The notes under the pieces: generated by a model
What the model was told of the DNA's origin: nothing
The model's database searches: none
What the model saw: the letters and a program-made list of their open reading frames with translations, nothing else
Origin: Sphyrna mokarran
Lineage: Eukaryota
Direction of reading: 5' to 3'
Assembly (NCBI GenBank): GCA_024679065.1
Contig: JAGIQG010000010.1
Span: forward strand, 12,834,001 to 12,898,000
Length of the DNA: 64,000 bases
Shown here: in pieces, positions 47,001-64,000 of the stretch
How positions within the stretch are numbered: position 1 is the stretch's first letter
Layout of the letters: the number at the start of each line of letters is the position of its first letter
Made by a program: the position numbers and the translations under genes

Positions 47001-50000
47001 CATGAAACTCTTACAGCATCAAAGGAAAGCCAGCTGTTCAAGAAGCTTGGTTCAACCTACAAAATTACTGCAGCAAAGGGGCATTCCAAGTCATGTACAT
47101 AGACGGATTTACTTGAAACAACCCTGTACAAATATATTTAATAGTAACCTTGATGTCCTAGTTCAAGCATTGCCTGCAGTACACATCCATAGACCCTTAA
47201 AAAGTTAGGGAACTTTAAGGTCAAGGAATAGCATCAGCACTTGAGTGGCTAAAAATCCACTTATAAAGCCACTGTGCAAAAAGATTTTTGGTTAAATTCT
47301 GGGTTATAATTGGCTTTATGGCTCCTAAAAACAGCTGGCTTAGAAAATTTGATCCCCACTATGTCCTTCATTTTTGAGAGAGCCTGAGGAATCTGTTAGC
47401 TGAACTTATTCTCTGGTGTGCAAAGTGCTTATTTTGGACAAGGCCTTTGCCAAGCTTCTGTTGTTTCAGGACAATGACTGAAAATTCATTTTAAAAAGCA
47501 TGAAAATTTTCAGAAGGTGAGACTGCATAGTTGGTTCAGAAAATCTATTAGGCTGGTCTTTACCACAAACTTCTTGTATTTATTCGAGATTGGTGTTAAA
47601 CAGATTCTCCTCCTTCACACCTCCAAAGTCATTCTGAGGAGATTTGAAGATGCTCAACACCTGGTAAATGCCTCATAAAACATTTAGGCCAAATAGATAC
47701 AAGTAGTCAAACCAAGTCTGACCAAGAATAGGTTTGGCAAATAATTGATGTCCAAATGCAAGGTGAAGAAAAGCTCTATAGAAATAGAATGCTTTCAGAC
47801 TCCACCAGGGCTTTAGCAGCTCTTGAATTTTAAGCCATACTGCCCAGAAGGAAGTATGAAATACAGGTTCACTGCTTCTCTACAAAGGGAAAAAAGGAGT
47901 ATTCCAAGTATTGTTAAGCGATCAACCCAAGGATTTCCTGCAGAGCTGAGTGGACAGTTTTAAAGTTACTTGGTTCAAAAATATGTCAGTTAAGGCCCTT
48001 GTTTTATCCAGGATCTAGATCATTAATTAGTAAAAGAAACAAACAATCTACTTGGATGGCAGTATGGAGTTTGCACAATCTCCCTATGTTTGCACGAATT
48101 TCTTCAGAGTGCTCCAGTTTTCTTCCACAGTCCAAAAATGTGCAAGTTAGGTGGATCGGCCATGCTAAATTGTCCTGTAGTGCCTTAAGATGTCTAAGTT
48201 AGTCGGGTAAATATGTTGAGTTACAGGGATAAGGCCTAGATCAGATACTCTGAAAGAGTTGATGCAAATGCAATGGGCCAAATGACCACCTTCAGCACTA
48301 TAGAGATTCTATCATTCTATACTTGAAGGAATTTAAAAATAAAATTAAACAGAGCAAAAAGGCAGCATACTGAGGTGCAATAAACTTATTCAGGTGTTTG
48401 ACAGCTATTTTACGCACGATTGAGATGCTCAAACCTTGATGAATGCACAACTAGCTGCATGAATTTCCTTGAACTATTTTCCATAAATAGCAAACAAAAA
48501 TAGAATCTTTATATTACAGTTCAGTCATTCTGGAAGCCAACTAATGAAGAGAACATTTCAGGCTGCAGTGATTAGACTGCTCAAATGTGCCAAGTGAAAA
48601 TGTAGGCTGTTTAAGAATGTTTTGATATACAAAATGAGATACAAAATCTACATTATTCAAATTACTTAAATTTCAACATGAATTTTGAGCACTATGTTGT
48701 ACTCTCAATTTTACAATGTTATTGGACAGATAAAGCTCAACAGATTCCATTGAATTAGCAAAGAAACAAACATTATTTTGGAAGAAGAATGGAAAATATT
48801 ACCTTGTTATAGTTAGGCAGTATTTCTTCCTAGTTTTACTTGAATACAGAAAAACAAATGCATACACCATAACATATCCAACCACAACATTCCCCCACTT
48901 ACCAGGCTCCGTGAAAGATCCCAAATCAAGGTCTGTCGTCATTTCATCTTTAAAAAAGACAATTGGGATAAATTTAGCATAAAACTTCATTAATGCAATG
49001 TTGTCAATTTACTAGTGGTGCAATTGCTTTTTTAAATACAAAATGAAAGCCACTGCAGCGAATGAAAAATGACTGAATATAGCACATCAAGAATTTGACT
49101 CAAAGTTCTTGTAAGTAAACTACCACTGAATTCTCAATGTTTGCCTTGAAAAATGCTGTGGCAAATTAAAGGCTTTGAAGGATTGCTCCGCAATGCTATT
49201 TAAAATGAGTCAAGAAGCTCCATATCTCATACTCTCATTCCAGGTAATTTCCTGTTTCAAAAGAGTGAGCAGGATTTCATTTTCAACTGGTCATGAACTC
49301 AAAATTTTATCTTTGTACTGGAACTGGGCATGAGCATTTAGATTTCCTGATAGGTGTTAAATTGGAGTTATACCAGTGATAATTTGAAACCAACACTCAA
49401 ATATTTCTAGGATAAAATCAAACAACTTACTAACTACATAAAAACAAACATGAATCTGGTGAAAATTTAGACACTGGCATCTAAGTGACAGGAGTCCATT
49501 TTGATGCCAGCCACAACATGTCAAATATAAATGATGTGTAAGTAAAGTATGGTTGATTTACACTGGCTCTACACTATTAAACTGTAGTATTATTTTCTGC
49601 AGTCATTAAGTTATGGCATTAATCATGCCATTCAGTTTGTCAGAAGCCTTTCCCACTTCCCAATGTCTCATCTCAGAAGAATAGAATGAAGATAAATCTA
49701 ATCAGAGTTATCAGTTTTAAGGCCAATAAACCAAAAATTTCCTTTAGAATTATTTCTGACACATACACTGCATTCATCTTAAACCATATTAAAACAGTTG
49801 AGGTCACCCTTTACATTCCAAATTTCTTCAGTCCTTTATGATATTTGAAGAAGCTTTTGGCTTTTTGCTGTTCTGTAACACTGCAAATGTGAAAATGTTC
49901 TTCCAATAAACTATCTGGACTTCGCGTGATGTCTCAAGACTTGCAAATACTTCAAAGGGCAGCATAAAGGATTCACCACTGAATAATAGGAAACAAAATG

Positions 50001-53000
50001 TGGTTGACTCTCAACTGCCCTCCACGGGCAACTAGGGTTGAGCAATAAATACTGGCCAGCCAGCAATACCCATGAATAAAGGAACAATACCAACAACTTG
50101 ACAAGCCAAACAGAGATGTTCTTCAATAAGAAGTGGGAAAGATTTAATGCTTTGGTACTTTCAGATGCCTGATTGTAGTCACAGAAAGTCAGCTGCTTAC
50201 ACAACTGGCCAAAGTCTTTTCAATAATTCCACCATCACAGAAAATCCTAAGAAATGAGTCTATGAAATGACAGCCAGCAGATGGCAGAGTATAAAAATGA
50301 AGAGAAGCCAATTTTGAAAAGAAGTGAAACCAACTCAAAAAGAAAACTGACCTATGTGTCTATGCTTCTTATGCTGAAATCATTTTACTTAAATTTTTTA
50401 GGTTCACACAAAAGTGAATCCTTCCACTTTTTGGAGTTATAAACAACTTGTGTTCATGTAGCACCTTATAAAACATCTCAAGGTTCTTCAGGGGAGCATT
50501 ATAAAACAAAATTCGTCACAGAGCATTATAAGGAGATAGATTTAGGGCAGACAACCAAAAGGTTGTCTGACATTAGTCAGAGATTGGTTTTAAGGAGCAC
50601 CTTCAAGGGTAGAGGGTTAGGGAGGTGGAGAAGTTGGAAGAAGAAATTCCAGAACTTAAAGGTTTATATTAATAAGCATATTTATAGAAGCCACTTCATA
50701 CTTGTGTTACAGAAATGCCTATTATATTTAATAATACCAAAAGCAGCAGGATCAGAGACTAACTTATAATTTTTATTTCTAAACATCCAAATATTTCCTA
50801 TTGTGTAGCCTAAAAAAATCTGGAAATAAACTTAGGCCACTGAGCAACAAAAACAAGGCAGTGCAAAATTCACAGAATGTGGATTTCCTCCAATTAAATA
50901 AACAATGATGTTTGCACACCTTTGGCGTTTGCAAGACTGTAGTCAAATCCTTGAGAGTTGTTGCCACTTGCACTCCTGTTGAAGGCAGGAGCAGTGAAAG
51001 GACTGGGAGGTGGTGTCTGAGGTGCTTGATCCAATAGTAGTTGCTCTGTCAAAGAAAACGATTTTAATGGCTTTTGCAAAAATTGTGAATTAAGTGAGAA
51101 CAACTTAGCTTCTTTAAAAACTCATTTGCATTTGGCGGGGTCAAAATTTATTGAGCATAATTCTGGCCTTTTTCCTGCAGCGTTTCATTTTCAAAAAAGT
51201 CTGGGGTTAGAATCAACTCAGAATACCTTCTGGCTAGAAGAATGGTGGGTAAACAGAAGGGGGAAAGAACAGCCATTATAGAGCAAAGAAACAATCCAGT
51301 TGGTGCTGTGGGGTCCTATACTTTGTAACAGATGGATGAGCTTTGGAACAACCTCAAAAACGCCAGTTCATACTGGAAAAGAGAGTTTTGCATTTGAAGC
51401 CAAAAAACAATTTCATAAATTTGGTTTGCACTCTTGGTAATTCAGTGGGACACACCCAAAGACAGCATGCCCTGACTTGAATAAATTAGGGCAATCTTGA
51501 AACAAAACCTGCAGATTCTTTGATTCATATTGGTAACAAAAAGAAGTGGCAAACAAATTACATCATTTCACCTGGTAAGCAGCAATGCAAGCTGTGGGAT
51601 GTTCTCCATGCAGGAAAACACATCTTCACTTCACAGCCTGAAATTATGGTAACAATTTTGGCCATGGTAAAATTGCCCCTTAGTATCCCAAGATGTGTAG
51701 GTTAGGTGTATTAGCTATGATAAATGTGTGGGGTTACAGGGGAGGGGATAGGGTGGGAAGAGGGCCTGGGTAAGATACTCTGCCAGAGTCAGTGCAGACT
51801 CAATGGGCTAAATAGTGTCCTTCTACATTATAAGGATCCTATGATTCTATGAAGTTACCACCTACAGAGTCAGTTTCCAAAGGTATCCACTATAGAACTA
51901 TGGGCGGTTCTGCTGCCTACTCCATCATGATCAGACATTCTTAAACTGCTTAACTCCTAATCTAGGACGTTGGTGCTTTTAAGCAACTCTACCAAAAGAA
52001 TGGAAGACTCTGCACTCATGACATACCCATTAAGTTATGCAGACCTTAAATATTGAGTTTCAATTCAGTCATTAAATCACTGTTTATAGAACACATTCTC
52101 ACAAAATCTGTCTAAAGGTAAAACACTGAGATGATTAATCCCTTCCCGCCTGGAAGTCCATGAATTTTGGCTTCTGTTCCAGTCTCACCAACAGTAACCA
52201 ATCTCCTTGTCACGAGTGGCTGAATATATATGGTGTGTTCCTGGTGGGATCCCCACTATTAAAGGAAGGCCATCATTGATCGTCTGGGAAACACTGGCAG
52301 TTCTGTTATAATACCGGAGCAGACGGACAGCTAAAAGGACAACACTATTCTAACCCCGCTGCTGTCAGCGGAAACAAAGGTATACATAACTAAGTAACTG
52401 ATAATAGACTGGACAGGTGCAACTGCTACAAGGTCTTCATGAGAAATTTTTAAAAATTCCTGTGTAAAACTACAGAATATGGAAGACTCAAAAATGGAGA
52501 ATTCAATGTCATAAGAACATAAGAAATAGGAGAAGGAGTAGGCCATCCAACCCCTCGAGCCTGCCCTGCCATTCAATAAGATCATGGCTGATCTGCAATG
52601 GTTCAGTACTACTTTCCCGCTTTTTCCCCGTAACCCTTAATTCCCTTGTCAATCAAAAACCTATCCACTCTTGACTTAAACATATTCAGCGAGGAAGCCT
52701 CCAAAAATTCAACAGGCAGAGAATTCCAAAGATTCACCACCCTTTGCGTGAAGAAATTCCTCCTCAACTCTGATCTGAACCACACCCTCCTAATCTTGAG
52801 GCTGTGATCTCTAGTCCTGCTATCTTTAAGTGGGAAGAGTCTCTCAATCTCTACCCTATCCATTCCCTTCATTATCTTATACGTCTCTATAAGATCCCCT
52901 CTCAGCCTTGTAAATGCCAAAGAGTACAAACCTAGCTTATTTAGTCTCTCCTCATAATCCAACGCCCTCAGGCCCGATATCAGCCTAGTGGACCTTCTCT

Positions 53001-56000
53001 GCACCCCCTTCAAGGCCAATATATCCCTCCTCGAATGCGGTGACCAAAACTACATACAGTACTCCAGCTGCGGCCTCACCAGTACCCTATACAGCTGCAA
53101 AAGTACCTCCCTACTTTTGTATGCTATCCCCCTAGCTATAAAGGCTAACATTGCATTCGCCTTCTTGATCACCTGCTGCACCTGCAAACTGTGTTTTTGC
53201 AATTCGTGCACAAGGATCCCTCTGCACTGTCGCATGCTGCAGTTTTTCACCACTTAAATAGTAATCCTTCCTACATTATTCCTACCAAAGTGGATAACCT
53301 CACACTTGCTAACATTATATTCCATCTGCCAAGTCCTCACGCACTCACTCAACCTATCCAGATCCCTCTGCAGGCTTTCTACATCCTCCACGCAATTTGC
53401 TTTTCCACTCATCTGTGTTATCAGCAAATTTCGTCACCCTGCACTCAGCCCCTTCCTCTAGATCATCTATGTAAATGGTAAATAGTTGAGGCCACAGCAC
53501 CGATCCCTGGGGCACTCCACTAGTCACCAGCTGCCAATCAGAATAGCACCCATTAATACCTACTCTTTGCTTCCTATTAGACAACCAATCCTCTATCCCA
53601 GTCTAACACCCTACCCCCAACTCCCTGCACCCTAACCTTCTGCAACAATCTTTTAAGGCACCTTATCAAAAGCCTTTTGGAAATCCAAAAACACCACATT
53701 CACCAGTTCCCCTCTATCTACCACACTAGTCACTTCCTCATAGAACTCCAATAAATTCGTCAAGCATGACTTCCTCTGCTTGATCAAACAGTTCGTATCC
53801 AGGTGCCTTGTTATTTCTGCTTTGATGACAGATTCAAGTTTTTTTTGTCCTTTATGTCCTTGAGCATAAAGTTCAAACTAAAGAATACAACAAGAAAATA
53901 ATTTCAATGGGCTAGTTATTTCAAGTAGCACTGCATGAGATTCATTTTGTGTCATTATGTGCAAGATCACAACGAAGAATCCAATTTTAGCTATCAATTT
54001 ATATTTTTTTTGAAAATACTACTGTGAACTGAAATATTCTGCATGAGACAACTGAATGAATGAGTACCTACCTTCTTCATGTCTTAGGTACTGGTTACCA
54101 CCTCGGTCTCTGGCCAAGGACCAAGCTTCACCATCACCACTTTCACAGAATTCCACCATACTGTTCTTATCAAGTTGGATCCATGTGCCCTCGTGATTTG
54201 CCACCTGTTATACAAATGACATTTACTGTCCCGCTCCATATTTAATAATAGAATTTGGGTGTCTGCAGAATTGAGATTATTTAAATATTTTACATCTCAG
54301 AATTTAAAATGCCTTGGCTGTTCCAGCTCAAAATTACTTGGAAAGACCCTTTATATATCATATATTGTAACCATTTGTAGGTTACAAACAAAAATACTGA
54401 ATACTTAATGAAACAAATTTGAATTGTGATAACTTATTGAATTTCTGAAATTTTAACCATTCACTACTAAAAAACAACTGAATTTAAACACAATGAGCTG
54501 GAATTTGCTGGAGCAGGGAATTTCACGGCATGATGGTTAGTTCAGATGTTTTCCAGTAACTTATAGCTCAAAATATTTTTACCCTGCAAGTTGCTGGAAA
54601 TGTGAGCTGACGTGTTGCACGGACAACAGGGCACTTGGGGCCTTGGGTGGACAACGGAATCAACTGTGTACCTTTGTTTTTATTCATTCAATGCGCCTTG
54701 CTTCATTGGCCGGGTTAGCATTTATTGACCATCCCTAATTGGCCTCAAGTGGTTGGCTTGGTAGGCCATTTCAGAGGATGTTTAAGAGTCAGTCATATTG
54801 CTGTGAATCTGGAGTCACATGTAGACCACACCAGGTATGGACAACAGATTTCTTTCCCCAAGGGACATTTGTGAACCAAATGGGATTTTGGATTTATGGT
54901 TATAATTAGACTTTTAATTCAAATTCCACCAAGTGCCCTGATGGATTTGAAGCCAGGTTTCCAGAGCATTAACCTGGATCCCTGGTTCAGGATAGAAAAA
55001 GAGGAATGTGGTCAATACCAAATTAGGTGAAGGAAAAGAAATAAAAGAAGAGAGAAAGAGAAAACATCGAAGAAAACAAGATGTAAAACTGGAAATTCGA
55101 CACTTAACAGCTCCAACAAATCACAACCCAAAGGGCAGACATTTAATACTTTTACTTGCCAACTTTCTGGGTTAAGAGGTCGATTGGCAGTAACATATCC
55201 CAGTAGGCTAGGTTTGTACAGCAATCTAGAAGCTACTGCACAGGATGTTCAAGAAATTTTAGCTTCTAAGAAACTGCATGTGTGCAGCTACATAGAAGGA
55301 TTACCATACGCAGATCGCACAAAGTTTTGAGAGGGCAATAGTTGACAGTCATTAATTATACAAATGACGCTTTTGCCCCATTTCATTTTTAATAATAGAA
55401 TTTGGATGCCTACAAGTTTGACTGTTTAAATATTTAACATTGCTACCTTTTCTATCATTTCTATTTTTCTTCAGTTCTGATGAAACATCACTGACCTGAA
55501 ACATCAGCTCAGCTTTTCTCCGTAGATGTTGCCTGACCTGCTGAATATTTCTGTTTTACCAGCAATTATTTCATTAAAAGTGTGCCAATATATGGCGAGC
55601 GCTGTGGGCAATTAAGTATGCAAATGCAGCAACTGCAGAAAATCTCTGGACAGCAGGCAATAAAATGCCATTTTCACAAAGCGCAATTCACAGGATATCT
55701 CCTTGTCACAAGCTGCTGGCCGATTTGTACATCGACAAAAGTTGGCACAGTTCATGTGCCGTTATTTCCTCAGCAAATTCCAGCCCAATTGGTTTTTAAG
55801 ACTGTGATCTGTTAGAATTGTTTTTCATGTATGTACCATTCTTAAATAAACTTAAAATACCATAGTTAGAAATAATAAGGATCTGCGATAACAAAAATTT
55901 GATCAAAATAACTACAGGATTTGAAATGTGTGAATTGTAGTTTTCACTGTTGCACTTACTTATTGCTACTACTAAATTTAGAATAAATTTGACACGAGCT

Positions 56001-59000
56001 ACATACACAAAAATGTCAGATTCTGTGAACTAATTTCAATAAAACCTGGCTTATAGCAAAATTTAGATGCCTAGTTTTGGCTTTCAAATTATAAAAGGAA
56101 CAACCAGAACACGAGATGGTTACAGCAATTTATATAATACACAGGAATAGAGATTTTATTAATCTGTCATTTAAAGTCAGTGTGATTAATGTGATTTATA
56201 ATCAGTTAAGAAAAGTAGTTTTTGAAGGGTATAGAGTAGAGTACGAAAAAGTAAACCAAAGCGACAGGTCATGTTGAATCATAGGATTTTGCAGCTCAAA
56301 AGCAGAGTATGCACCTGCAGATCACCAAATTTGGTAAGCATGGTATAAAAGCTTCTATGATTTTTCACAGTACCCAAAGGCATCAATGCCTGTTTTTTTT
56401 TAAGTGAAGAAATTATACCAGTACCAGATGTCCTCCTATAATATTATGCAAAAGCTTGAGAAGACATCAGTTTTGCAGCATTTGCTCTAATGTGTTGATT
56501 GGTACCTGCAATAACACACTTTCATGAATCCATACCTCGCCTAATGCCTTGACTCTGTTCCCAAGAACTAACATTCCAATGGGGATACCTCTAAGGTTAG
56601 GGCAGCTCCTGATGTTGTGCCCTGAAGGCCCAGTCTTCACTACCTTATATACTCCTGGTCCGCCTTGCAGGAACATCTTTTCCTGCTCTTTCAACACTAC
56701 TTCATGGGACCGACGTGAATTTACTTCTCTGAAGTAATCATCAGTGATGGATTTAGGCTCCTGGAAACAAAAGCAAATATATTCATTGCACTAAAGCATT
56801 TGAATTTATCTTTTAAAAGCCGGTTTGTATCAGAACATAAATTCTGGGCCCCATGACTTAAGCAATGCGAATAGTATTGACACCACAAAACATTAGAAGG
56901 TAATCTGTTCTACAGGTTAAAAATTAACTGTCTTTTGTTATTCACATGCAAACATAAAATAAATGTGAATCTCTAGAATCAAAAACAATTACGTGTCACA
57001 GCAAAATGCCTCAGGATTTCATTGTTTCTAAATTGACAAACTGCTCACCTGATATCTAATATAGGATGTGTTGAAATTTTCTCCAACTAAATATCGTTAA
57101 GGTCAAACCCATCATCTTCAGTCTCTGCCACTGATTCCAGCTCCCTCCTTGGCAACTATTTGCAACCTTGGTGTCATATTTAGTCACAAATGAGCTTTAA
57201 ACCACATATGACTGCCATCACCAAGATCATCTACTTATATCTCTGCAATATTGCCTGACTTTACCTCAGCCCATTTGCTGCTGAAACTCTCATTTATGCC
57301 TTTGTTATTTCTAGGCTCAACTATTCCAATTTACATCTGGGGTGCTCTACCCTCATTCCACATCTGTTCATCCCTCCCCACTAGATAAACTAAAGTGGCT
57401 TCCAGTTTGGCAATGCCACCATTTAAAAATTATCATAATTTCAAATCCCTCAATGGTCTTGTTCCTTCCAATTTCTAATCTCCTACAGGTCTACAGCTCT
57501 CTAAACTATCTGCAACCCTCCAATTTTGGCCTCGAGTATCTCCAATTTTAATTGCTCCATTGCTGGTATTATGTTTTCAGTTGCCAAGGGTCTAAGCATG
57601 GAATTCCCTCCCTAAAGCTCTTTGTTTTTCCATTTTTTTGCCCCCTTTTTTATGGCAACCCTGACGATCAATCATGACCAAGTTTGAGATGATCTATCTT
57701 ACTCTCTCCTAAAATGGATTGCTGTTATATGCATATATTGCTTGTCAAATGCTTGTAAAACATATTGATTCTGCTGAGAATTCCTGAACTCCTTCCACTA
57801 GAAAAATGTTCAAAACAGGTAATTCCTAAGATTCAGACTTGCAACTTTCTCAAAAGTAAAGTTAATGCTAATGAGTACACCCATTGTTAGCAACAACAAA
57901 ATATAAAGCTGGCTTTGACAAATATTTCTGCAACATCAGTGAAAATACTACAGTAGCAAAACAAAAGCACTCGTCAAACCAATCATTTGATGGATGATTA
58001 CAGCACAAAATGAGGCCTACTGAATCTGTCAGTACCGTGCACGAACAAGTTCGCTAAATGCATTCCCACTCCTTTTCTTATAGCCCTGCAAATTCTTATT
58101 TGGATACTTGTCAAGTTCCCATGCAAAAAGCAGTCTCCATTATACTCTTAGACAATGGATTCCAATATCTGTGTAAAAACATTTTTTTCCTCCTCGTGTC
58201 ACGATTGGTGCTTTTGTCAATCACCTTTAAATCCATTCCTTCTTGCTCTCAATCCTGAGAATAACGGGAACAATTTCTCCCCAGCTATTCTGCGAAGACC
58301 CATTTGGACACCTTTATCAAATTTCCTCTCAATTGTCTCTCCTCTAAGAAGAGCCCTAGCTATGGAATCTATCCATATAAACCAAGTCCCTCATTGACGC
58401 AATCATTCTAGAGTACAGCACCCAGAATTGGACACATTGCCCAGTTGAGGACAACCTGTGTTTTCTAAAGGTTCATCATAACCTTGTCCTCACATTCCAT
58501 GCCCCTATTCATAAAGCTCTATTTATAAAGATCCCATAAGCTTTTTTTAAATAATTCTTCTCGCAATCTTACCACTTTCAAGAATCCGTGCACATATCCC
58601 CATCCCTCCCCCATAGCCTTGTTCCTGCATTCTTTTAGAATTGTACTCTTTAAATGTACATTGCTTCTCCTCATTCTTCCTACCAAAATGTATCTTTTCA
58701 CAGCTATCTGTTTCCTTCTTTGACTAAAAGTAATCTGCAGCTGTAAAAGCAGCATAATTCTATGACCAACATCCTTCTCTAAACTGCACCATTTCATAAT
58801 AAATGCAATTAATAAGTAGCCAACACCTTGAAAATGACAATCTTGGAGGTGACAATATTACGCATACCCAGAAATTCGGTGAAATTTTCACAACGGGGAT
58901 GTGACAGAAAATGCAGCAAGCCATTCAAAGCTCCATTCACTTTAGCAGGACTGGAAGATGCCCCCCAGCAGTAGAGCCTGAAAATTCCAGCTTATGTGCT

Positions 59001-62000
59001 GAGCTTGCTTGTGCTCAGTATACCAAGGAACAAAAACCTGACTTGAAAGCCACAATCAAAGTCGTATTATACAAAATGGATGTCAAGATTGTCATAAATT
59101 GTGTGGTATAAACTCATTTTTAGCAAGATTGATTTTTAAAAACCCATTTATAACCTTTAAAAAGAAAAATATATTTTATTTGAGAAACCAAACATTAACC
59201 ACTCATTTAAACTTACCTGATACCATACAGTCTTAGAAATCCATGATAGGATATCCATTTACCTGATGCCTTCGCTAGCATTAAAGACAATCTAATTAAT
59301 GAACTTTAAGACAACTTGGATCGGATCCTAACTAAGATGCCAACATAGTTTGTTAAATTTGCTAAGTTATTTAAAGCTTTCATCATATTCATGCTAAGAC
59401 ATTTGGCCCTTTTTAATTGGAATGTTCACATATAGGACTGATCAGAGAACAAATCCCAGCCAGCATATCTAATGGAAATCCATCTGTTTGCAGCTGGCTT
59501 ACTAAGTAAAATAGCATGTCTGAAGAAATTTGGTGGCACATTTTTCACTTGGAAAAAAGCAGGTCACCCTCTTGAAGAATAAGCAACCAACAGCACTGGT
59601 ATCCAAAATTAGCATGTGGCAAATCACTTATTCACCCTCCTATCTGATAAAAGAGTAAGCAATTCACAACTGGTCCAAAAGCAAAGAGATAAAATGAAAC
59701 AGGGCAAACAGAAAAGACAGGCGGAAAATAGTAATATTGGTTAAAAAAGTTATCAGCATTTTCTTTTACCGATATACAAAGCAAAAATATGAATCAAACT
59801 TCTCTGGCCAACTCTGAATCTGCTATATAATGTCAGTTTTGCAATATACTACATGTGTGATCTGTGTCTAAAGCAACTGAAAGCTCTAGATGGGTCTCTA
59901 TCTTACATAGCTTGCTTTTTTTTGATAGACTCAAGGCTCACATTCAAAGAAAGGTTGAATGTTTCGTTCGAAGAAATGAAACCAGAACCAATCACATCTG
60001 TGAAAGCTTGTCTAGCACTCTTGCAGCAATTATCATGGCTTTGCAAGTACCTTGACAGGGATGGATGATATAAGAGAATCATAAACATACCTTAACACTG
60101 GCCCAAACTATCTTATACCTAATATAGCCTTCCATTGCACTGACATTTTCAAAAGACCTGGATCAATCTGTAGTACTTCATAGGCCGAGCCATTAACACG
60201 GCTCCATTCAGGTGCATGCCGTCCAGGTATTCTAACATCCTGTAACCCTATCACCTCTCAAACATATTTAGGCTTTATGTTTTAATCTCGACTGGCCTGT
60301 CAAAAAAAGAGTCCAACAGCTGACCTTTCTTACTTCTGTGGGTGTAGTCTGTGTACCAACAGCTACCTCAGTGTTCTGAAAGACCTAGATCACTCACCTT
60401 CCAGATTTGATCCATCATATATAATTCCAGCCTCAACCTCTCGTTCGTTACTGTACGTGAACTAATCCTGAGGAAAATCCCTCTTTCCTCCCCCATCCCT
60501 GAAACCTAGTCTCACATTCCCAATAGTTGCTGATTTCCCTACCCTTGCCTTTCCCATGTGAATTCAAATGATTTTAGACAGAGTGCCATATGATCCAGCA
60601 TCCAATGCCCAATTTCCTGCTAAGTATCTTCAGCTTTGAAAAGTATAAAATAAAAAATGAATACATCACTAAATAAAGTTAGAACTAACTTGGGATCACT
60701 GGATATTGATGCAGAAAGTTGCACACAAACAAACAATTTGAGACAAGTAGGAAAAGGGAAGAGAAAAGTATTCCAGGGAAAGGAGAACAGAATAGTTAAA
60801 CCGGGTGAATGAACAAATCACAGTTAGAGAAACAATTTTAATTCTGCTTTTCTCCATGAATAGGGTGGGAGATGATTAGCATTCCAAAAATTGTCATTCA
60901 GATTTATTGAACATTGTAGATTTAAGTGGCACAATATTTTCAACTATTCAAGGCTGACAAAAATTTAGACTAGCAGAAACACAGGTGAAATTCAAACACA
61001 GGTATAAGAAAAAAAATATTGAACAGCAAGGTCAAAAATATTAGGAGAAAAAAAGTTAAATACAATTTTTGTTTTAAGTCTGTGTAGGTCGTAACTAAGA
61101 ACAGGACAAAGTTTTTCTATTACTGGATAAAAGTTTGACCAGGCTGTGCGATGTATCAAATTCAGTCATGAAGAGATGGAATACTTTGAAATTTTGGTAA
61201 AACTGACAAGAAAGGATTAAGTTGAAAAGATAAGTTTCAGGCTATAGAAGAGAATTATCAGATAGCAACTTTTATGGTACCCGTTGCAGAAGTAGAAGAA
61301 ATGTGCTGCAAGACCTGCTAACAAATACAATTATTTGGCAAAAACAAATTAAGTACTTTTCAGTCCACTTATTTCAGCACAGCAATGTCACTTCTTCAGG
61401 AAGTATCTCAAACAAACCAGAGAATGCAAGGAAAGAAAACGGCAAAAGATTCAATACAGTCGAATTTGGGGTGTGATCACCCCCAAACGGCCTTTAATAC
61501 AATAGTCACACTTGGTGCATGACATGCACAACTTATGCACAAATCCAGGAATTTACAAAAAAAAATCTGTAAACACAAATTAAACATTTTTTTTAACAAT
61601 GCAAATATAAAAATGATGTTATTTCACTGCTCCTCCTCCAGAAACATTATGCTATATTGGAAAATTCAAGACAAAATCTGTGCCCTCATAAAAAAAAACA
61701 ACTTCTATTTGAATGTCTTTAGGGATGAAAGCAAAATGTGAAAGCAATTTGCACAAAAACAATAGAGGAAAAAAAACTCGTCAGTAATGCGTATATTTGT
61801 TTGAAACAAACTGATGAAATTTAAAGGAATTTTTGCTTATAAAATGCATAAAGCACAATCTGATTGCACAACACTGAATGTACTAAACTAGTACCTCTCT
61901 TTTGACTTTTACTTGACAAAAAAACTCAAATGCAGCGTAAACCTCAATCTGCAATTTTTGCAGTGTATGCAACATAATCCACTTCTAATCTTGCAACACA

Positions 62001-64000
62001 GAAGTGCCAATATTAACAAAGAAAGTGGTATGACATGCACACTAGGTACCTGCAATTGGACTGCTGGTAACAAACCAGAATAAATCTGGTTTGGTTGATA
62101 ACATCATAATCAACAGTACACCATTTAACTTTCACTTCAAAACACCCCTGTGTTGCTCAATTCCATTAACCCGTATGCTGCCATTTGTGAACAATTTGTG
62201 AGTTCAGATATTCTCACTACCAAGTGTGTTTTACTGAAGATTGCTTTACTGCATGCAAGCACAGTTTAATTTATTGGGTGTTAGGGTAAATTAATTCACT
62301 TGATGTGCGAACAAAAATTAGTTGCAAAAATACACTACATGCAAACACAGCATAGAAGTTATTAAAATGCAAGATTAACTATATTAATTTTGCTTGTGAC
62401 AAATTTGAAGCAGAATATGGATATGATTTAAATTTTCTTCTGTAAATAATTCAGTTTATATTACAGTGTGATATTGCCAAATGTTATCAAAATGCATTAC
62501 AAGTATTTTTACTTCACAAGAGAATTTAACCAGTTAAAAATACTTGATTCCATTCCTTTTAGCAAACATTTGCATTCCTGCCTTGACTATTGGTACAAGT
62601 TAATAGCCCAGGCTGCAAATCACTAAACATTCTTAGCAGCATTAATCGCAAAGCTGCTAGTAACACAAGCAAATATGTTGCGCTGATCTTTATTACTTCT
62701 ACTTTAATTTGTGGATTGTATATTTTCTTCATTTTTAATTTTGCAGAACATGGGATACATAGACTGCCATTCTGCAAATAAATATCTGCTGTAGAATCAC
62801 TTACTACTGGTTGGGGGAAGTGGGGCAGAGGGGAAGAGGTGGAGAAGAGAGAAGAGAGTGCTTGTGCTTTAATATTGTATTTCTCCATGATTTTTCCTGT
62901 TCTACTACATCATGAAAGATGTGGCATGGTTAGTATTATAGCCACAGTACAAGGTCATATAATACTAGTCTTGAGAAATAAAAGAAGCAAGGGAGTAAGA
63001 GGGAAAGAAAAGATGCACTGTCTTTTTTAATCATTTTAGATACAGTCCAAATCCATGTACAATCCCATGTTTTGGTTATCATTCATATAGTCAACAGGTG
63101 ATTTCCCAATCTAATAGCAATGCATTTACACTACAATTCTGGGCACAAACCAGTTAAGAGTGTTAAAATGTGCATGGCAAATTAAGATTTTTACTTGAGC
63201 CTTACAAGTCTATTATCCATTAGATTAAGGATAAACCTTACTCTTCCTGCACATCTCCTTTCATGGTCAACGTCATCTTAAACACTAAATCTTCTGACTA
63301 TTCTGACAATATCTTGCACAACTGTTAAAATGAGAATGCTGCACTGAAGCAGTCTGTATCAAATGACTCATTGTACAGTATCTTTTTATGCAATTAGCAG
63401 TGATTTGGCTGGCTCATTGATCAAATATTTCTTTTAAAAATATTCAGCTCCAATGTAGCCACTGGTAAAGAAATCAGGGCATCAAGTGTTCAGAAATGTA
63501 TTCAACACATCATGTCTCTTAATCACTGCTGAACGTCAGAACTTGAGGAAGCAGTTTTTCTTAGTGAACCAAAGAATCATCTTCCTCCTCTAACTAAGCA
63601 ATGTCAGAATTTGTGCTAAGCATTATCTGGTTAAATATTGCATTAGTTTTGTGCAGCATTATTTCTTCTGCATTTTAAATGAAAAAGTTCCTTGATGGAG
63701 AGAACATTCTGCCCTTCCCATCAATGAACTTTGTGGTCTTATTGAAGCATAGCCTCCCAAATGAGTGCTCTCTCTTCTTCAGAAATAAAGAAATTACAAT
63801 ATCATTCAGATTGTAACAGTTTAAAGTTAAGGCTAAAAGATACAAGCAAATAAATTTTAATTAATGCAGATTTTAGTAAATAGTGCGAAACAGTGCTCAC
63901 AGACAGCAAAGGGGTTAAATTGCCATAACAGGCATTTCATCATTGGCACCTTTACTTACATCAACAGGGACCAGAAGGCTCTTGCCCAGGTGTTGGTTAA
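468..64000 (-). CDS. MYCBP2: MYCBP2 E3 ubiquitin ligase, multi-exon, 5'-truncated by window edge (C-terminal part of the protein, including DOC/APC10, B-box-like, RING-H2 and tandem-cysteine domains)
   Basis: Minus-strand exon translations match vertebrate MYCBP2 peptides ([75 protein letters not shown]). All core exons are bounded by AG/GT (one GC donor) with consistent phases through to the stop codon. Confidence 0.98.
881..1097 (-). mobile_element. HE1-like SINE, 3' fragment
   Basis: tagaatccctacactgcaga tail and caatttagcatggccaatcc core shared with other copies in the window. Confidence 0.75.
1850..2250 (+). mobile_element. Decayed CR1-like LINE 3' fragment
   Basis: Degenerate match to the CR1 ORF2 end seen at 52510-53800 (ctgtatagaactttagtt..., gtggcctgttttctgtgctgta tail). 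Confidence 0.55.
2426..2591 (-). CDS. MYCBP2: MYCBP2 exon MCPKHG...LPHCPA(G), tandem-cysteine domain with downstream catalytic Cys
   Basis: cag|ATG acceptor, G|gtaat donor, 166 nt, phase 0 to 1. Confidence 0.97.
3195..3302 (-). CDS. MYCBP2: MYCBP2 exon [36 protein letters not shown] (upstream catalytic Cys)
   Basis: tag|GCG acceptor, CAG|gtatt donor, 108 nt. Confidence 0.97.
4260..4469 (-). CDS. MYCBP2: MYCBP2 exon [16 protein letters not shown]...[11 protein letters not shown]
   Basis: cag|AAC acceptor, AAG|gtaagt donor, 210 nt. Confidence 0.96.
4576..4683 (-). CDS. MYCBP2: MYCBP2 exon [12 protein letters not shown]...ACPICK (RING-H2 second half)
   Basis: aag|TTG acceptor, AAG|gtgaga donor, 108 nt. 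Confidence 0.96.
4971..5192 (+). mobile_element. HE1-like SINE, 3' half
   Basis: gtaggttaggaggattggcc...gctaaattgctccttagtg core and cagacttgatgggctgaactgcctccttctgc tail. Confidence 0.75.
5230..5620 (-). mobile_element. L2-like LINE 3' fragment
   Basis: Similar to 30560-30880 and 50455-50665 (gaccaaaagcttggttaaa...gggaattc) and to the reverse complement of 57100-57640. Confidence 0.5.
5951..6139 (-). CDS. MYCBP2: MYCBP2 exon [19 protein letters not shown]...[19 protein letters not shown] (RING first half)
   Basis: cag|GAA acceptor, CAG|gtaagc donor, 189 nt. Confidence 0.96.
6295..6398 (-). CDS. MYCBP2: MYCBP2 exon (G)[34 protein letters not shown]
   Basis: cag|GC acceptor, CAG|gtgagt donor, 104 nt, phase 1 to 0. 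Confidence 0.96.
7173..7199 (+). repeat. (ATT)n microsatellite
   Basis: attattattattattattattactact. Confidence 0.9.
7372..7545 (+). mobile_element. CR1-like LINE 3' end
   Basis: Encodes [18 protein letters not shown]. Similar to 17930-18085. Confidence 0.7.
9393..9525 (-). CDS. MYCBP2: MYCBP2 exon [44 protein letters not shown](G)
   Basis: cag|GTG acceptor, G|gtgaga donor, 133 nt. Confidence 0.96.
10386..10514 (-). CDS. MYCBP2: MYCBP2 exon [43 protein letters not shown] (B-box-like), GC donor
   Basis: tag|CCT acceptor. Ends CAG|gcaatg (non-canonical GC). 129 nt. Confidence 0.93.
10975..11090 (+). mobile_element. Penelope-like element 3' terminus
   Basis: gatgcagccagacttgctgaatttatccagcattttctgtttttatttctgatttctagcatctgca motif recurs at 12700, 24400, 25620, 26400 and 55500. 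Confidence 0.55.
11441..12400 (-). mobile_element. CR1-like LINE, 5'-truncated and decayed
   Basis: ORF 12069-12338 has an RT-like segment ([13 protein letters not shown]). The 3' tail is similar to the 52510 copy. Confidence 0.85.
12695..12790 (-). mobile_element. Penelope-like terminus fragment
   Basis: Close match to 25625-25725. Confidence 0.6.
13207..13308 (-). CDS. MYCBP2: MYCBP2 exon [34 protein letters not shown]
   Basis: cag|TTA acceptor, ATG|gtgagg donor, 102 nt. Confidence 0.96.
13425..13544 (-). CDS. MYCBP2: MYCBP2 exon [40 protein letters not shown]
   Basis: tag|GGC acceptor, AGG|gtaatg donor, 120 nt. Confidence 0.95.
14752..14848 (-). CDS. MYCBP2: MYCBP2 exon [32 protein letters not shown]
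   Basis: cag|C acceptor, GCA|gtaagt donor, 97 nt, phase 2 to 0. Confidence 0.95.
15700..15975 (+). mobile_element. LINE 3' fragment (L2/CR1 group)
   Basis: aagggcagcag...ctccaagttcctctc...catcctaacttgga...gctcaccatcacctt...tgctggcctt. The tail is shared with the SINE at 54680-54990. Confidence 0.6.
16336..16610 (-). CDS. MYCBP2: MYCBP2 exon [14 protein letters not shown]...TLPSVFNS(G)
   Basis: cag|GTG acceptor, GG|gtaagt donor, 275 nt. Confidence 0.96.
16793..17059 (-). CDS. MYCBP2: MYCBP2 exon [15 protein letters not shown]...[10 protein letters not shown]
   Basis: cag|GTA acceptor, CAG|gttggt donor, 267 nt. Confidence 0.96.
17930..18085 (+). mobile_element. CR1-like LINE 3' end
   Basis: ttttaaggggcatcttgacaaatacatgaatagg...gtcgaagggcctgttcctgtgctgta. 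Confidence 0.7.
18662..18739 (-). CDS. MYCBP2: MYCBP2 exon [26 protein letters not shown]
   Basis: aag|GCA acceptor, CAG|gtttga donor, 78 nt. Confidence 0.92.
18834..18923 (-). CDS. MYCBP2: MYCBP2 exon [30 protein letters not shown]
   Basis: cag|GTA acceptor, AAG|gtacaa donor, 90 nt. Followed by a 94-nt intron. Confidence 0.93.
19550..20230 (-). mobile_element. Decayed CR1-like LINE
   Basis: Similar to the 52510 copy (tgagatcattgctgatctg, gtgcccagaactgctcacaacactccaagtg). Confidence 0.75.
20264..20548 (+). mobile_element. HE1-like tRNA-derived SINE, tail type B
   Basis: A-box (ggcacagtg...) and B-box (gggttcgattcc), V-domain-like core, tail tgtggcgactagggg...gcctacttgtgactaataaa. Confidence 0.9.
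20698..20937 (-). CDS. MYCBP2: MYCBP2 exon [18 protein letters not shown]...[11 protein letters not shown] (DOC domain end)
   Basis: cag|ACT acceptor, CAG|gtatgt donor, 240 nt. Confidence 0.96.
21244..21321 (+). repeat. 38-bp tandem duplication (2 copies)
   Basis: atttgaccccagatcctttgactctgggactacatcat repeated with 1 mismatch. Confidence 0.95.
21479..21544 (-). CDS. MYCBP2: MYCBP2 exon [22 protein letters not shown] (DOC domain)
   Basis: cag|AAC acceptor, CAG|gtaaga donor, 66 nt. Confidence 0.94.
22180..22404 (-). CDS. MYCBP2: MYCBP2 exon [13 protein letters not shown]...HVDNSRDLG (DOC/APC10 domain start); tandem acceptor could extend to 22407
   Basis: cagcag|GAG acceptor, GGG|gtaaga donor, 225 nt. 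[12 protein letters not shown] motif is typical of DOC domains. Confidence 0.95.
23030..23230 (+). mobile_element. LF-SINE-like ancient SINE remnant
   Basis: Degenerate similarity, from memory, to the LF-SINE consensus (ctgtgctg...gatctcag..., gggtgaggaaaagactgggctc). Confidence 0.35.
23406..23562 (-). CDS. MYCBP2: MYCBP2 exon (R)[52 protein letters not shown]
   Basis: tag|A acceptor, CAG|gtaaaa donor, 157 nt, phase 2 to 0. Confidence 0.96.
23679..23938 (+). mobile_element. HE1-like SINE, tail type B
   Basis: ccccgtgtctgcatgggtttcctccaggtgct core and gactaggattttcacagtaac...gcctacttg tail. Confidence 0.85.
24846..25120 (-). mobile_element. HE1-like SINE, tail type A
   Basis: Reverse complement of the head (gtgctaaccactgtgccaccgtgc), the core and the tagaatcc tail. 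Confidence 0.9.
25590..26100 (-). mobile_element. Penelope-like retroelement 3' portion
   Basis: gctggaaaatctcagcagatctggcagcatctg terminus plus an upstream ctgaaattgttgaattcaatgttgag segment. Confidence 0.6.
26110..26455 (+). mobile_element. Penelope-like 3' portion, inverted relative to 25590-26100
   Basis: Reverse-complement match to 25624-25850. Includes a (CA)n tract. Confidence 0.6.
26671..26985 (-). mobile_element. HE1-like SINE, tail type A
   Basis: Head, core and catagaatc tail on the minus strand. Confidence 0.9.
27124..27284 (-). CDS. MYCBP2: MYCBP2 exon [53 protein letters not shown](R)
   Basis: cag|GAA acceptor, CG|gtaggt donor, 161 nt. Confidence 0.96.
28646..28795 (-). CDS. 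MYCBP2: MYCBP2 exon [26 protein letters not shown]...KENIEQ
   Basis: cag|GCC acceptor, CAG|gttggt donor, 150 nt. Confidence 0.95.
28990..29189 (-). CDS. MYCBP2: MYCBP2 exon (E)[16 protein letters not shown]...[10 protein letters not shown]
   Basis: cag|AA acceptor, GAG|gtcagt donor, 200 nt. Confidence 0.96.
30230..30512 (+). mobile_element. HE1-like SINE, tail type B
   Basis: ggtggcagagtgattagcactgctgc head, core, and gtgtggtgacttggggg...taagcttactagtgac tail. Confidence 0.9.
30560..30880 (-). mobile_element. L2-like LINE 3' fragment
   Basis: gaccaaaagcttggtt...gcttagggcctaggcagctg, recurring in the window. Confidence 0.55.
32010..32545 (+). mobile_element. Decayed Penelope-like fragment
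   Basis: caggtgaagcacagatttgc...aagttgaaggaactgcattgcatcttttgattaggcactctaca, ending in the shared ccagcatattctgtttttatttcaga terminus. Confidence 0.45.
32666..32823 (-). CDS. MYCBP2: MYCBP2 exon (S)[32 protein letters not shown]...RRRVNSGDA
   Basis: cag|C acceptor, G|gtgaga donor, 158 nt, phase 2 to 1. Confidence 0.95.
32923..33090 (-). CDS. MYCBP2: MYCBP2 exon (R)[36 protein letters not shown]...LKSMPP
   Basis: tag|A acceptor, AG|gtaatt donor, 168 nt, phase 2 to 2. Confidence 0.94.
33826..34146 (+). mobile_element. HE1-like SINE, near full length, tail type A
   Basis: gggtggcacagtggttagcactgctgcctcacagc, B-box gggttcaattcc, core, and tail ctgcactgtagattctatgattc. Confidence 0.92.
35740..35928 (-). 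mobile_element. HE1-like SINE 3' fragment
   Basis: Reverse complement of the 33960-34146 portion. Confidence 0.85.
36205..36440 (-). mobile_element. DeuSINE (SacSINE1/AmnSINE-like) remnant
   Basis: Degenerate reverse match to the Deu-domain pattern (ttgagggatgaaca..., cctcaatttaacatttca, gtgtcagcctagatt). Confidence 0.5.
36581..36825 (-). CDS. MYCBP2: MYCBP2 exon [30 protein letters not shown]...CLYLQTLA(R)
   Basis: cag|GTG acceptor, AG|gtaaag donor, 245 nt. Confidence 0.96.
37580..37995 (+). mobile_element. Rex1/Babar-like LINE 3' end with nested CR1-tail insertion
   Basis: Encodes [12 protein letters not shown]...(insert)...[17 protein letters not shown]. 3'UTR ends aataataaatcaaatca. 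Confidence 0.7.
38730..39025 (-). mobile_element. HE1-like SINE, tail type B
   Basis: tttattagtgtcacaaataggcttaca tail and core/head on the minus strand. Confidence 0.88.
39334..39503 (-). CDS. MYCBP2: MYCBP2 exon (G)[25 protein letters not shown]...KQAAAREK
   Basis: aag|GT acceptor, AAG|gtatgt donor, 170 nt. Confidence 0.96.
39870..40095 (+). mobile_element. DeuSINE (SacSINE1/AmnSINE-like) remnant
   Basis: gcagtactgaggga...ctttcagatgagatgttaaac...attatctggtcatt...tttgtgggatcttgct follows the Deu-domain consensus as I recall it. Confidence 0.65.
40255..40635 (-). mobile_element. CR1-like LINE 3' fragment
   Basis: ORF 40434-40625 ([17 protein letters not shown]) resembles the CR1 ORF2 C-terminus. 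Tail ggagcaggaataggccattt. Confidence 0.8.
40985..41027 (+). repeat. G43 homopolymer
   Basis: 43 uninterrupted G. Confidence 0.95.
41526..43169 (-). CDS. MYCBP2: MYCBP2 large 1644-nt exon (Ser/Pro/Lys-rich region through ...[12 protein letters not shown])
   Basis: Lies within ORF 41518-43203. ttttcag|GT acceptor, G|gtaact donor. Conserved blocks include [36 protein letters not shown]. Confidence 0.97.
43498..43710 (+). mobile_element. HE1-like SINE, 3'-truncated
   Basis: gggtagcacagtggttag head, gggttcgattcc B-box, core. Confidence 0.88.
43946..44262 (-). mobile_element. HE1-like SINE, tail type A
   Basis: Near full-length reverse copy. Confidence 0.9.
44566..44667 (-). CDS. MYCBP2: MYCBP2 cassette exon, 102 nt, [34 protein letters not shown]
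   Basis: tcttcctctgtag|AC acceptor, AAG G|gtgggt donor, symmetric phase 1, open frame. Resembles (from memory) a mammalian alternative peptide SRNLASRERIYK. Confidence 0.8.
45120..45281 (-). CDS. MYCBP2: MYCBP2 cassette exon, 162 nt, (G)[53 protein letters not shown]
   Basis: cag|GT acceptor, A|gtaagt donor, symmetric phase 1. Matches the known vertebrate isoform peptide [12 protein letters not shown]...[12 protein letters not shown]. Confidence 0.92.
46444..46560 (-). CDS. Candidate 117-nt cassette exon [39 protein letters not shown]
   Basis: ttatgtag|TT acceptor, AGA G|gtagtc donor, symmetric phase 1, no stop. No homology recognised. Confidence 0.3.
48058..48320 (+). mobile_element. HE1-like SINE, 5'-truncated
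   Basis: tggagtttgcacaatctcc core through gattctatcattcta tail. Confidence 0.85.
48903..48947 (-). CDS. MYCBP2: Probable MYCBP2 45-nt cassette mini-exon (D)[14 protein letters not shown]
   Basis: gtcttttttaaag|AT acceptor, consensus CCTG|gtaagt donor, symmetric phase 1, open frame. Confidence 0.7.
49997..50080 (+). mobile_element. SINE 3' fragment (same family as 54680-54990)
   Basis: aatgtggttgactctcaactgccc...gggcaactagggttgagcaataaatactggcc. Confidence 0.6.
50455..50665 (-). mobile_element. L2-like LINE 3' fragment
   Basis: ggttttaaggagcaccttcaa...aaattccagaactta. Similar to the 30560 copy. Confidence 0.5.
50920..51045 (-). CDS. MYCBP2: MYCBP2 exon (E)[41 protein letters not shown]
   Basis: cag|AG acceptor, AAA G|gtgtgc donor, 126 nt, phase 1 to 1. 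Confidence 0.93.
51657..51852 (+). mobile_element. HE1-like SINE 3' half
   Basis: ggccatggtaaaattgccccttagt...gtgcagactcaatgggc...atgattctatga. Confidence 0.85.
52510..53800 (-). mobile_element. CR1 LINE, 5'-truncated, frameshifted reverse-transcriptase ORF2
   Basis: ORFs 53354-53584 ([29 protein letters not shown]), 53050-53253 ([13 protein letters not shown]) and 52609-53019. Short-repeat 3' tail (ataagaacataagaa on +). Confidence 0.95.
54072..54204 (-). CDS. MYCBP2: MYCBP2 exon [44 protein letters not shown]
   Basis: cag|GTG acceptor, G|gtaggt donor, 133 nt. Confidence 0.96.
54495..55786. mobile_element. Non-autonomous TIR DNA transposon (PIF/Harbinger-like) with nested insertions
   Basis: TIRs gagctggaatttgctg / cagcaaattccagccc (15/16 match). 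3-bp direct repeat aat on both flanks (54492-54494, 55787-55789). Confidence 0.6.
54680..54990 (-). mobile_element. tRNA-derived SINE nested in the TIR element
   Basis: agcatttattgaccatccctaattg tail, ctggagtcacatgtagacc body and ggatttgaagcc B-box-like head on the minus strand. Confidence 0.65.
56536..56760 (-). CDS. MYCBP2: MYCBP2 exon [12 protein letters not shown]...[43 protein letters not shown]
   Basis: ttccag|GAG acceptor, GAG|gtatgg donor, 225 nt. Confidence 0.95.
57100..57640 (+). mobile_element. Decayed L2-like LINE
   Basis: gctgaaactctcatttatgcctttgttatttctaggctcaactattccaat encodes [16 protein letters not shown], typical of the L2 ORF2 C-terminus. Confidence 0.7.
58000..58790 (-). 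mobile_element. Decayed CR1-like LINE
   Basis: cccagaattggacacattg..., cattcttcctaccaaaatg segments similar to other CR1 copies. Confidence 0.55.
59217..59291 (-). pseudogene. MYCBP2: 75-nt MYCBP2 cassette exon with in-frame stop: [24 protein letters not shown] (poison or decayed exon)
   Basis: tag|ATT acceptor, CAG|gtaagt donor, symmetric phase 0, TAA at 59259-59261. Same length and similar sequence as a 25-aa mammalian alternative peptide recalled as NIFNASQGVRDLDVFSWTSKAFFPQ. Confidence 0.75.
63960..64000 (-). CDS. MYCBP2: MYCBP2 exon, 3' end only (...[13 protein letters not shown])
   Basis: GAT|gtaagt donor at 63958-63959. Peptide matches vertebrate MYCBP2. Confidence 0.93.

Follow-up and report, generated by a model that had tools for sequence, protein, structure and literature searches.

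Wang et al. are said to have described species-specific exon loss in 2015. The loss of TNNI3 exon 3 in shrews and moles likewise disables one exon of an otherwise intact gene, which relatives keep, and leaves an in-frame skip, according to a review that cites their work (PMC12992808). Compared to TNNI3, the shark exon described here was already optional, its splice sites are kept, and the lesion consists of an internal stop and a new donor. It is also known from the sequence of one assembly. Tolerated loss-of-function variants in alternative exons of haploinsufficient genes (pext; PMC7334198) are similar in that the gene is truncation-intolerant and the exon with the stop is not constitutive. 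Those variants segregate in humans, whereas the shark stop is the state of the reference assembly, and the exon it interrupts is conserved throughout jawed vertebrates. Poison exons that lead to nonsense-mediated decay (NMD), as presented in PMC3847767, have the same geometry, with later junctions lying far downstream of the premature stop. In contrast, the shark stop is not conserved in close relatives and the exon is an ancestral coding exon. The pseudogenic exons covered in the available part of PMC2718932 also carry a premature stop in an active gene, but they are duplicated copies with a parent exon, whereas the shark exon is the single-copy original. The mouse exon MmuEX0030319 belongs to the same gene, is also 75 nt long and is SRRM4-dependent, but is coding in mouse (PMC4387716, in the portion available). 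A skipped MYCBP2 exon is mentioned, and not identified, in the accessible parts of PMC11310779, 10.1101/2024.02.20.581203 and PMC2898759. No report of this stop or of any MYCBP2 poison exon was found in the literature searched, which covered few subscription journals.

The window, a 64,000-nt stretch of Sphyrna mokarran DNA, contains part of MYCBP2 on its minus strand, and the features of the exon under study are collected in Table 1. The explanation that we favor, with a probability of roughly two in three, is a passive, recent and tolerated loss of one optional MYCBP2 exon, whose included transcripts are likely lost to NMD. As most likely read, this is a clean natural knock-out that affects a single alternative exon, deeply conserved, in a dosage-sensitive axon (nerve-wiring) gene, and it suggests that at least one jawed vertebrate can do without the 25-aa insert.

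Table 1. Coordinates of the MYCBP2 cassette exon and its associated features within the window
Feature	Position	Strand	Remarks
Cassette exon of MYCBP2, 75 nt, phase 0/0	59217..59291	minus	Orthologue of the vertebrate 25-aa insert
Premature TAA, codon 11 of cassette exon, in frame	59259..59261	minus	
Upstream exon, 3' part	63960..64000	minus	Whole exon 141 nt, 100 nt of it outside the window
Downstream exon, 225 nt	56536..56760	minus	Strong acceptor (11.47)
Canonical donor CAG/GTAAGT	59211..59219	minus	Consensus; same in 4/4 relatives; score 12.84, above 71/71
New internal donor CAG/GTAAAT, after 59263	59257..59265	minus	Score 10.07, above 57/71 gene donors
Weak acceptor of cassette	59289..59311	minus	Score 3.94, above 8/71; relatives 4.57-5.34
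Hypothetical in-frame 12-nt micro-exon (internal AG at 59275 and new donor)	59263..59274	minus	Acceptor 3.14
9-nt exact direct repeat of the exon's own donor (59213-59221), 46 nt apart	59259..59267	minus	Possible template
First 44 intron bases past the donor	59173..59216	minus	Differ at one place in 1/4 relatives

The initial annotation had described a 75-nt, phase 0/0 exon on the minus strand with an in-frame TAA, and its coordinates and flanks match our analysis. The boundaries read tag/ATT...CAG/gtaagt at 59291-59217, and the TAA is present at codon 11 of the translation. Of the flanking exons, the upstream one ends at 63960 and the downstream one starts at 56760, and both are phase 0. The cassette exon is the single match in the 2.77-Gb genome, with no second hit in the 116 kb searched, which rules out a duplicated pseudo-exon with an intact parent copy. 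An ATG follows the stop directly and in frame (59258-59256, minus). Since Met is also found here in 3 of 31 distinct bony-vertebrate peptides, this ATG is not new, and both read-through of the stop and re-initiation at the ATG were rejected. TAA is the least leaky stop codon, and the ~2,550 codons that lie upstream of the ATG presumably count against re-initiation there.

The gene was modelled with 50 kb beyond the window, resulting in 71 internal exons and 12,120 nt, with the model starting at about residue 615. When the cassette is skipped, the 4,039 modelled codons contain no stop or frameshift. Their product shares 94.5% identity with Mobula hypostoma MYCBP2 and 84-86% with eight bony-vertebrate MYCBP2 proteins. 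RCC1-like, PHR and RING are among the Pfam domains of the Mobula hypostoma protein, which places the gene as the MYCBP2/PHR orthologue. The intact 4,039-codon skip frame rules out decay of the whole gene. Truncation before the RING domain, as initially proposed, is borne out by the model: the TAA would end the protein at about residue 2,558, N-terminal to the RING (4441-4493 in the ray protein). The insert falls between the first SH3_3 match and a second repeat resembling it, and therefore likely lies in a linker.

Full-length bony-vertebrate MYCBP2 proteins were used as tblastn queries against the 116 kb, and four of the six matched the exon, with E values of 0.002-0.042. At this junction, bony-vertebrate MYCBP2 has a 25-aa insert that aligns to the cassette exon without gaps. 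The mammalian 25-aa peptide that the initial annotation cited is present in P0044. We examined 219 long MYCBP2 proteins: 120 had the insert, 35 skipped it, 28 had another junction and 36 missed the anchor. Proteins shorter than 3,000 aa were excluded from this count, including P0008, which has an odd insert start and is likely mis-predicted. The insert is 25 aa long in 120/120 of the insert-bearing bony-vertebrate proteins, which represent mammals, birds, reptiles, amphibians, lungfish, coelacanth, gar, sturgeon and teleosts; these proteins are gene predictions, many from the same species, and were mostly found using an insert-bearing query. The 31 distinct peptides have Asp (28), Glu (2) or Gly (1) at position 11, and no stop is present in any of the 31, which are open by selection. 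The 35 long proteins with the skip form include annotations in ray, coelacanth, teleosts, birds and mammals. In eight isoform sets, the 25-aa differences are due solely to this insert. The exon thus agrees with the vertebrate MYCBP2 25-aa cassette in junction, length, phase, gapless homology and the occurrence of both included and skipped isoforms. Judged by this homology, the cassette is the orthologue of the vertebrate coding insert and appears to have gained a stop in this lineage.

In wild-type mouse cortex and hippocampus, the 75-nt Mycbp2 exon MmuEX0030319 has a PSI of 46-55, which drops by an average of 10.8 points when SRRM4 is missing (PMC4387716 Table S2). This exon is likely the orthologue of the shark cassette, because the insert is the only 25-aa isoform difference in the eight sets; gene, length and isoform sets all point to this identity. 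For cartilaginous fishes, no insert-bearing protein was named as such among the 23 hits listed of one protein search. The best 120 of 441 protein matches held no cartilaginous-fish protein, the best 120 of 561 held one ray protein, and an insert like that of the window was not found in eight proteins read from a further 12 hits; none of these results is evidence of absence. Both ray isoforms seen (X1 and X16) are without the cassette exon. They weigh little, since only two were seen and X1 is also without two other cassettes that are open in the window.

Sequencing runs from close relatives were then compared with the window. Among the 24 runs listed, none is recorded as RNA, three may be RNA (one of them from the same organism), and the best relatives share 0.14-0.19 of sequence words, at ~94-95% identity. 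Four of them (X3, X5, X11 and X15), each with one contig across the exon at a depth of 5.2-8.5, were compared over 59100-59420. The initial annotation had named GAA as a possible sense codon. The orthologous exon aligns in all four relatives, but codon 11 is GAC in X3, X5 and X11, so two bases differ from TAA, and GAC to TAA takes two transversions within one codon, two bases apart. In X15, a 6-nt in-frame deletion removes codons 11-12. Descent of this deletion from a TAA ancestor was rejected, as a 3-nt repeat present in the GAC state seems to account for it better. X5 and X11 have a common 3-nt deletion at 59243. The stop was found in none of the four relatives and the frame is open in all of them, so that the stop is recent and, unlike that of classical poison exons, not conserved. 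None of the differences in the four relatives touches the AG or the donor of the cassette.

The two in-frame deletions within the exon among four relatives, compared to none among 120 bony-vertebrate inserts, provide a weak hint of relaxed constraint on the peptide. Indels kept the frame in 2/2 cases in the exon and 1/5 in the flanks, a contrast without statistical significance (p=0.14). Similarity across relatives is 90-95% for both the upstream flank and the 321-nt stretch, close to background. Upstream of the acceptor (59292-59348, minus), five bases and one 1-nt indel set the window apart from all four relatives, and two of these differences sit at -9 and -10 of the acceptor. Unnamed bony-vertebrate ORFs (mammal-like, bird-like and fish-like) have the same three residues just before the exon. 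This suggests a conserved acceptor context from which the window departs.

Splice sites were scored with matrices built from this gene's 71 donors and 71 acceptors, a crude measure for which one inferred junction was dropped. The internal donor noted in the initial annotation, with its 29-nt frameshifting exon, is present. Its score is reached by 0.26% of decoy GTs, and the donor is absent from all four relatives, none of which has a GT there. If this donor is used, the frameshift produced by the 29-nt exon would lead to a stop in the next exon, 185 nt short of its end. In the 75-nt form, 42 nt of the exon remain after the TAA, the next-but-one junction lies 267 nt past it, and the model contains 30 junctions downstream of the stop. 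A stop is expected to elicit NMD when a later junction follows at a distance of more than 50-55 nt. Inclusion of the 75-nt or the 29-nt form is therefore predicted to trigger NMD.

In the passive loss that we favor, an ancient optional exon would have acquired a stop that is absent in its relatives. Exon skipping would keep supplying full-length ligase, and the exon-including transcripts would be destroyed by NMD as a side effect. The stop may have been tolerated because inclusion was low or because constraint on the peptide had already relaxed in these fishes. The weak acceptor, seen in both the window and the relatives, and the open skip frame favor this explanation. The locus also has the pattern of a lineage-specific exon loss: the exon is open in outgroups and disabled here, and the rest of the modelled gene is intact. 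A known class of tolerated variants consists of stops that fall in alternatively spliced exons, even in dosage-sensitive genes (PMC7334198). Against passive loss, the donor and the 44 bases that follow it show no decay, an observation of low power at ~5% divergence. Human MYCBP2 is truncation-intolerant, with a pLI of 1, and a heterozygous frameshift in the gene was reported in an affected family (PMC12588063, available text). Given this intolerance, inclusion near 50% in the brain, the level of the likely mouse orthologue, would make the stop costly and not neutral. Homology-based annotation would mis-call this exon.

The stop and the donor could have arisen together. Only 11 of the 1,635 possible single nonsense changes in the gene create a donor scoring at least 6.7, and only one reaches 10. 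Since a stop with a strong donor is so rare among these changes, the combination needs a reason. One candidate is the 9-nt repeat of the exon's own donor (Table 1), since stop and donor may both go back to a single templated mutation. A third difference, at 59267, lies in this tract and matches the template, and the window letter there is common only to X5. With random double substitutions in the gene's exons, a template was found within 50-200 nt in 1.2-2.5% of 6,000 trials; within this exon, 8-25 of 657 double substitutions found such a template. The repeat was noticed post hoc and is thus only suggestive. GAC to TAA may have arisen in one templated event, with the exon's own donor, 46 nt further downstream, as the source of the copy. 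Two-step routes are also possible, either via Glu, which 2 of the 31 peptides have, or via Tyr, an intermediate in which the donor would already score 8.0. Neither the templated nor the two-step origin needs selection for a poison function, and with a chance of 1-2.5% for the templated match, the stop and the donor need not have been selected. The short-range template switch of PMC7954356 requires a template in reverse orientation within 100 nt, whereas the best one here is a direct repeat. Misalignment on the same strand would be distinct from that switch in its mechanism.

Another explanation, which we consider unlikely, is that the exon is a working poison exon: the old neural inclusion program would route part of the MYCBP2 mRNA to NMD, lowering the ligase, and the new donor would make the truncation robust. 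Both changed bases move toward the donor consensus, which is rare for nonsense changes. The exon's own donor is consensus and the downstream intron is nearly unchanged in relatives. The likely mouse orthologue is regulated by SRRM4 (PMC4387716, in the part available), and both the 75-nt and 29-nt forms put a stop well upstream of later junctions. A possible purpose lies in the role of Phr1 and NMNAT2 in axon degeneration, in which Phr1 works through NMNAT2 (PMC4806438, accessible portion). However, described poison exons are recognized by conservation in the available text of PMC3847767, and this stop is in none of the four relatives. A templated origin accounts for the donor without selection, and the acceptor scores slightly below that of the relatives. 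We know of no splicing feedback loop for the MYCBP2 ligase. The initial annotation had proposed a coding cassette that either became an NMD-triggering exon or is decaying. An orthologous cassette with a lineage-specific stop is indeed what we find, and decay fits best; the poison-exon branch fails on conservation, as the stop is absent from 4/4 relatives and 31/31 bony-vertebrate peptides. It also seems improbable that one templated mutation, by copying the exon's donor into its middle, made a species-specific poison exon out of a coding exon that is neurally regulated and dates back to early jawed vertebrates. If true, neuronal MYCBP2 ligase would go down, targets such as NMNAT2 would go up, and axons would be protected. 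Continued inclusion of the exon in neurons would make this a rare datable case of a coding exon turning into a poison exon.

A consensus error of the assembly, with the exon open in the animal, is slightly less probable. The TAA is seen in one assembly only. The share of 1.00 in the best DNA run is uninformative, since loss of the words over codon 11 would still give 0.997, and this run may itself be the source of the assembly. An error would, however, need two substitutions two bases apart, in a region where the 12,120 nt of modelled coding sequence nearby contain no stop or frameshift, two other cassettes are open, and no tandem repeat occurs in 50000-64000. The stop is real at the level of the one assembly examined, and the allele may be fixed in the species or confined to this individual.

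The weakest alternative, a very unlikely one, is that the new donor is used with the internal AG at 59275, shortening the exon to an in-frame micro-exon whose four residues are read in a different frame. This pair keeps the reading frame open, its acceptor score is near that of the true acceptor and SRRM4 targets include many micro-exons (PMC4387716 Table S2). Against it, 66 of 71 real acceptors are stronger than the internal AG, which also faces competition from an AG 17 nt upstream; the resulting peptide is without homology to the ancestral frame, and no protein carrying it is among the protein matches listed. Since this pair is in frame, the initial statement that either splice choice truncates applies to the 75-nt and 29-nt forms and not to the 12-nt choice.

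Several other features of the gene model were observed. Two more cassettes, at ~45306-45118 and 44650-44564 (minus), are open here and present in bony-vertebrate isoforms; they are missing from the longest ray isoform seen. A GC donor at 10386 (minus), along with two other places beyond the window, reflects either true GC-AG introns or model errors. A short exon from 48947 to ~48870 (minus), whose donor end is not fixed, matches ray residues ~2708-2730. It received no hit from bird and mammal-like queries and is possibly particular to sharks and rays. Inside the downstream exon, an alternative donor (AAG/GTAGTG at 56644, minus) would drop 108 nt (36 aa) in frame. Isoforms without these 36 aa are found in ray, coelacanth, sturgeon, frog and barb, suggesting that this donor event is conserved.
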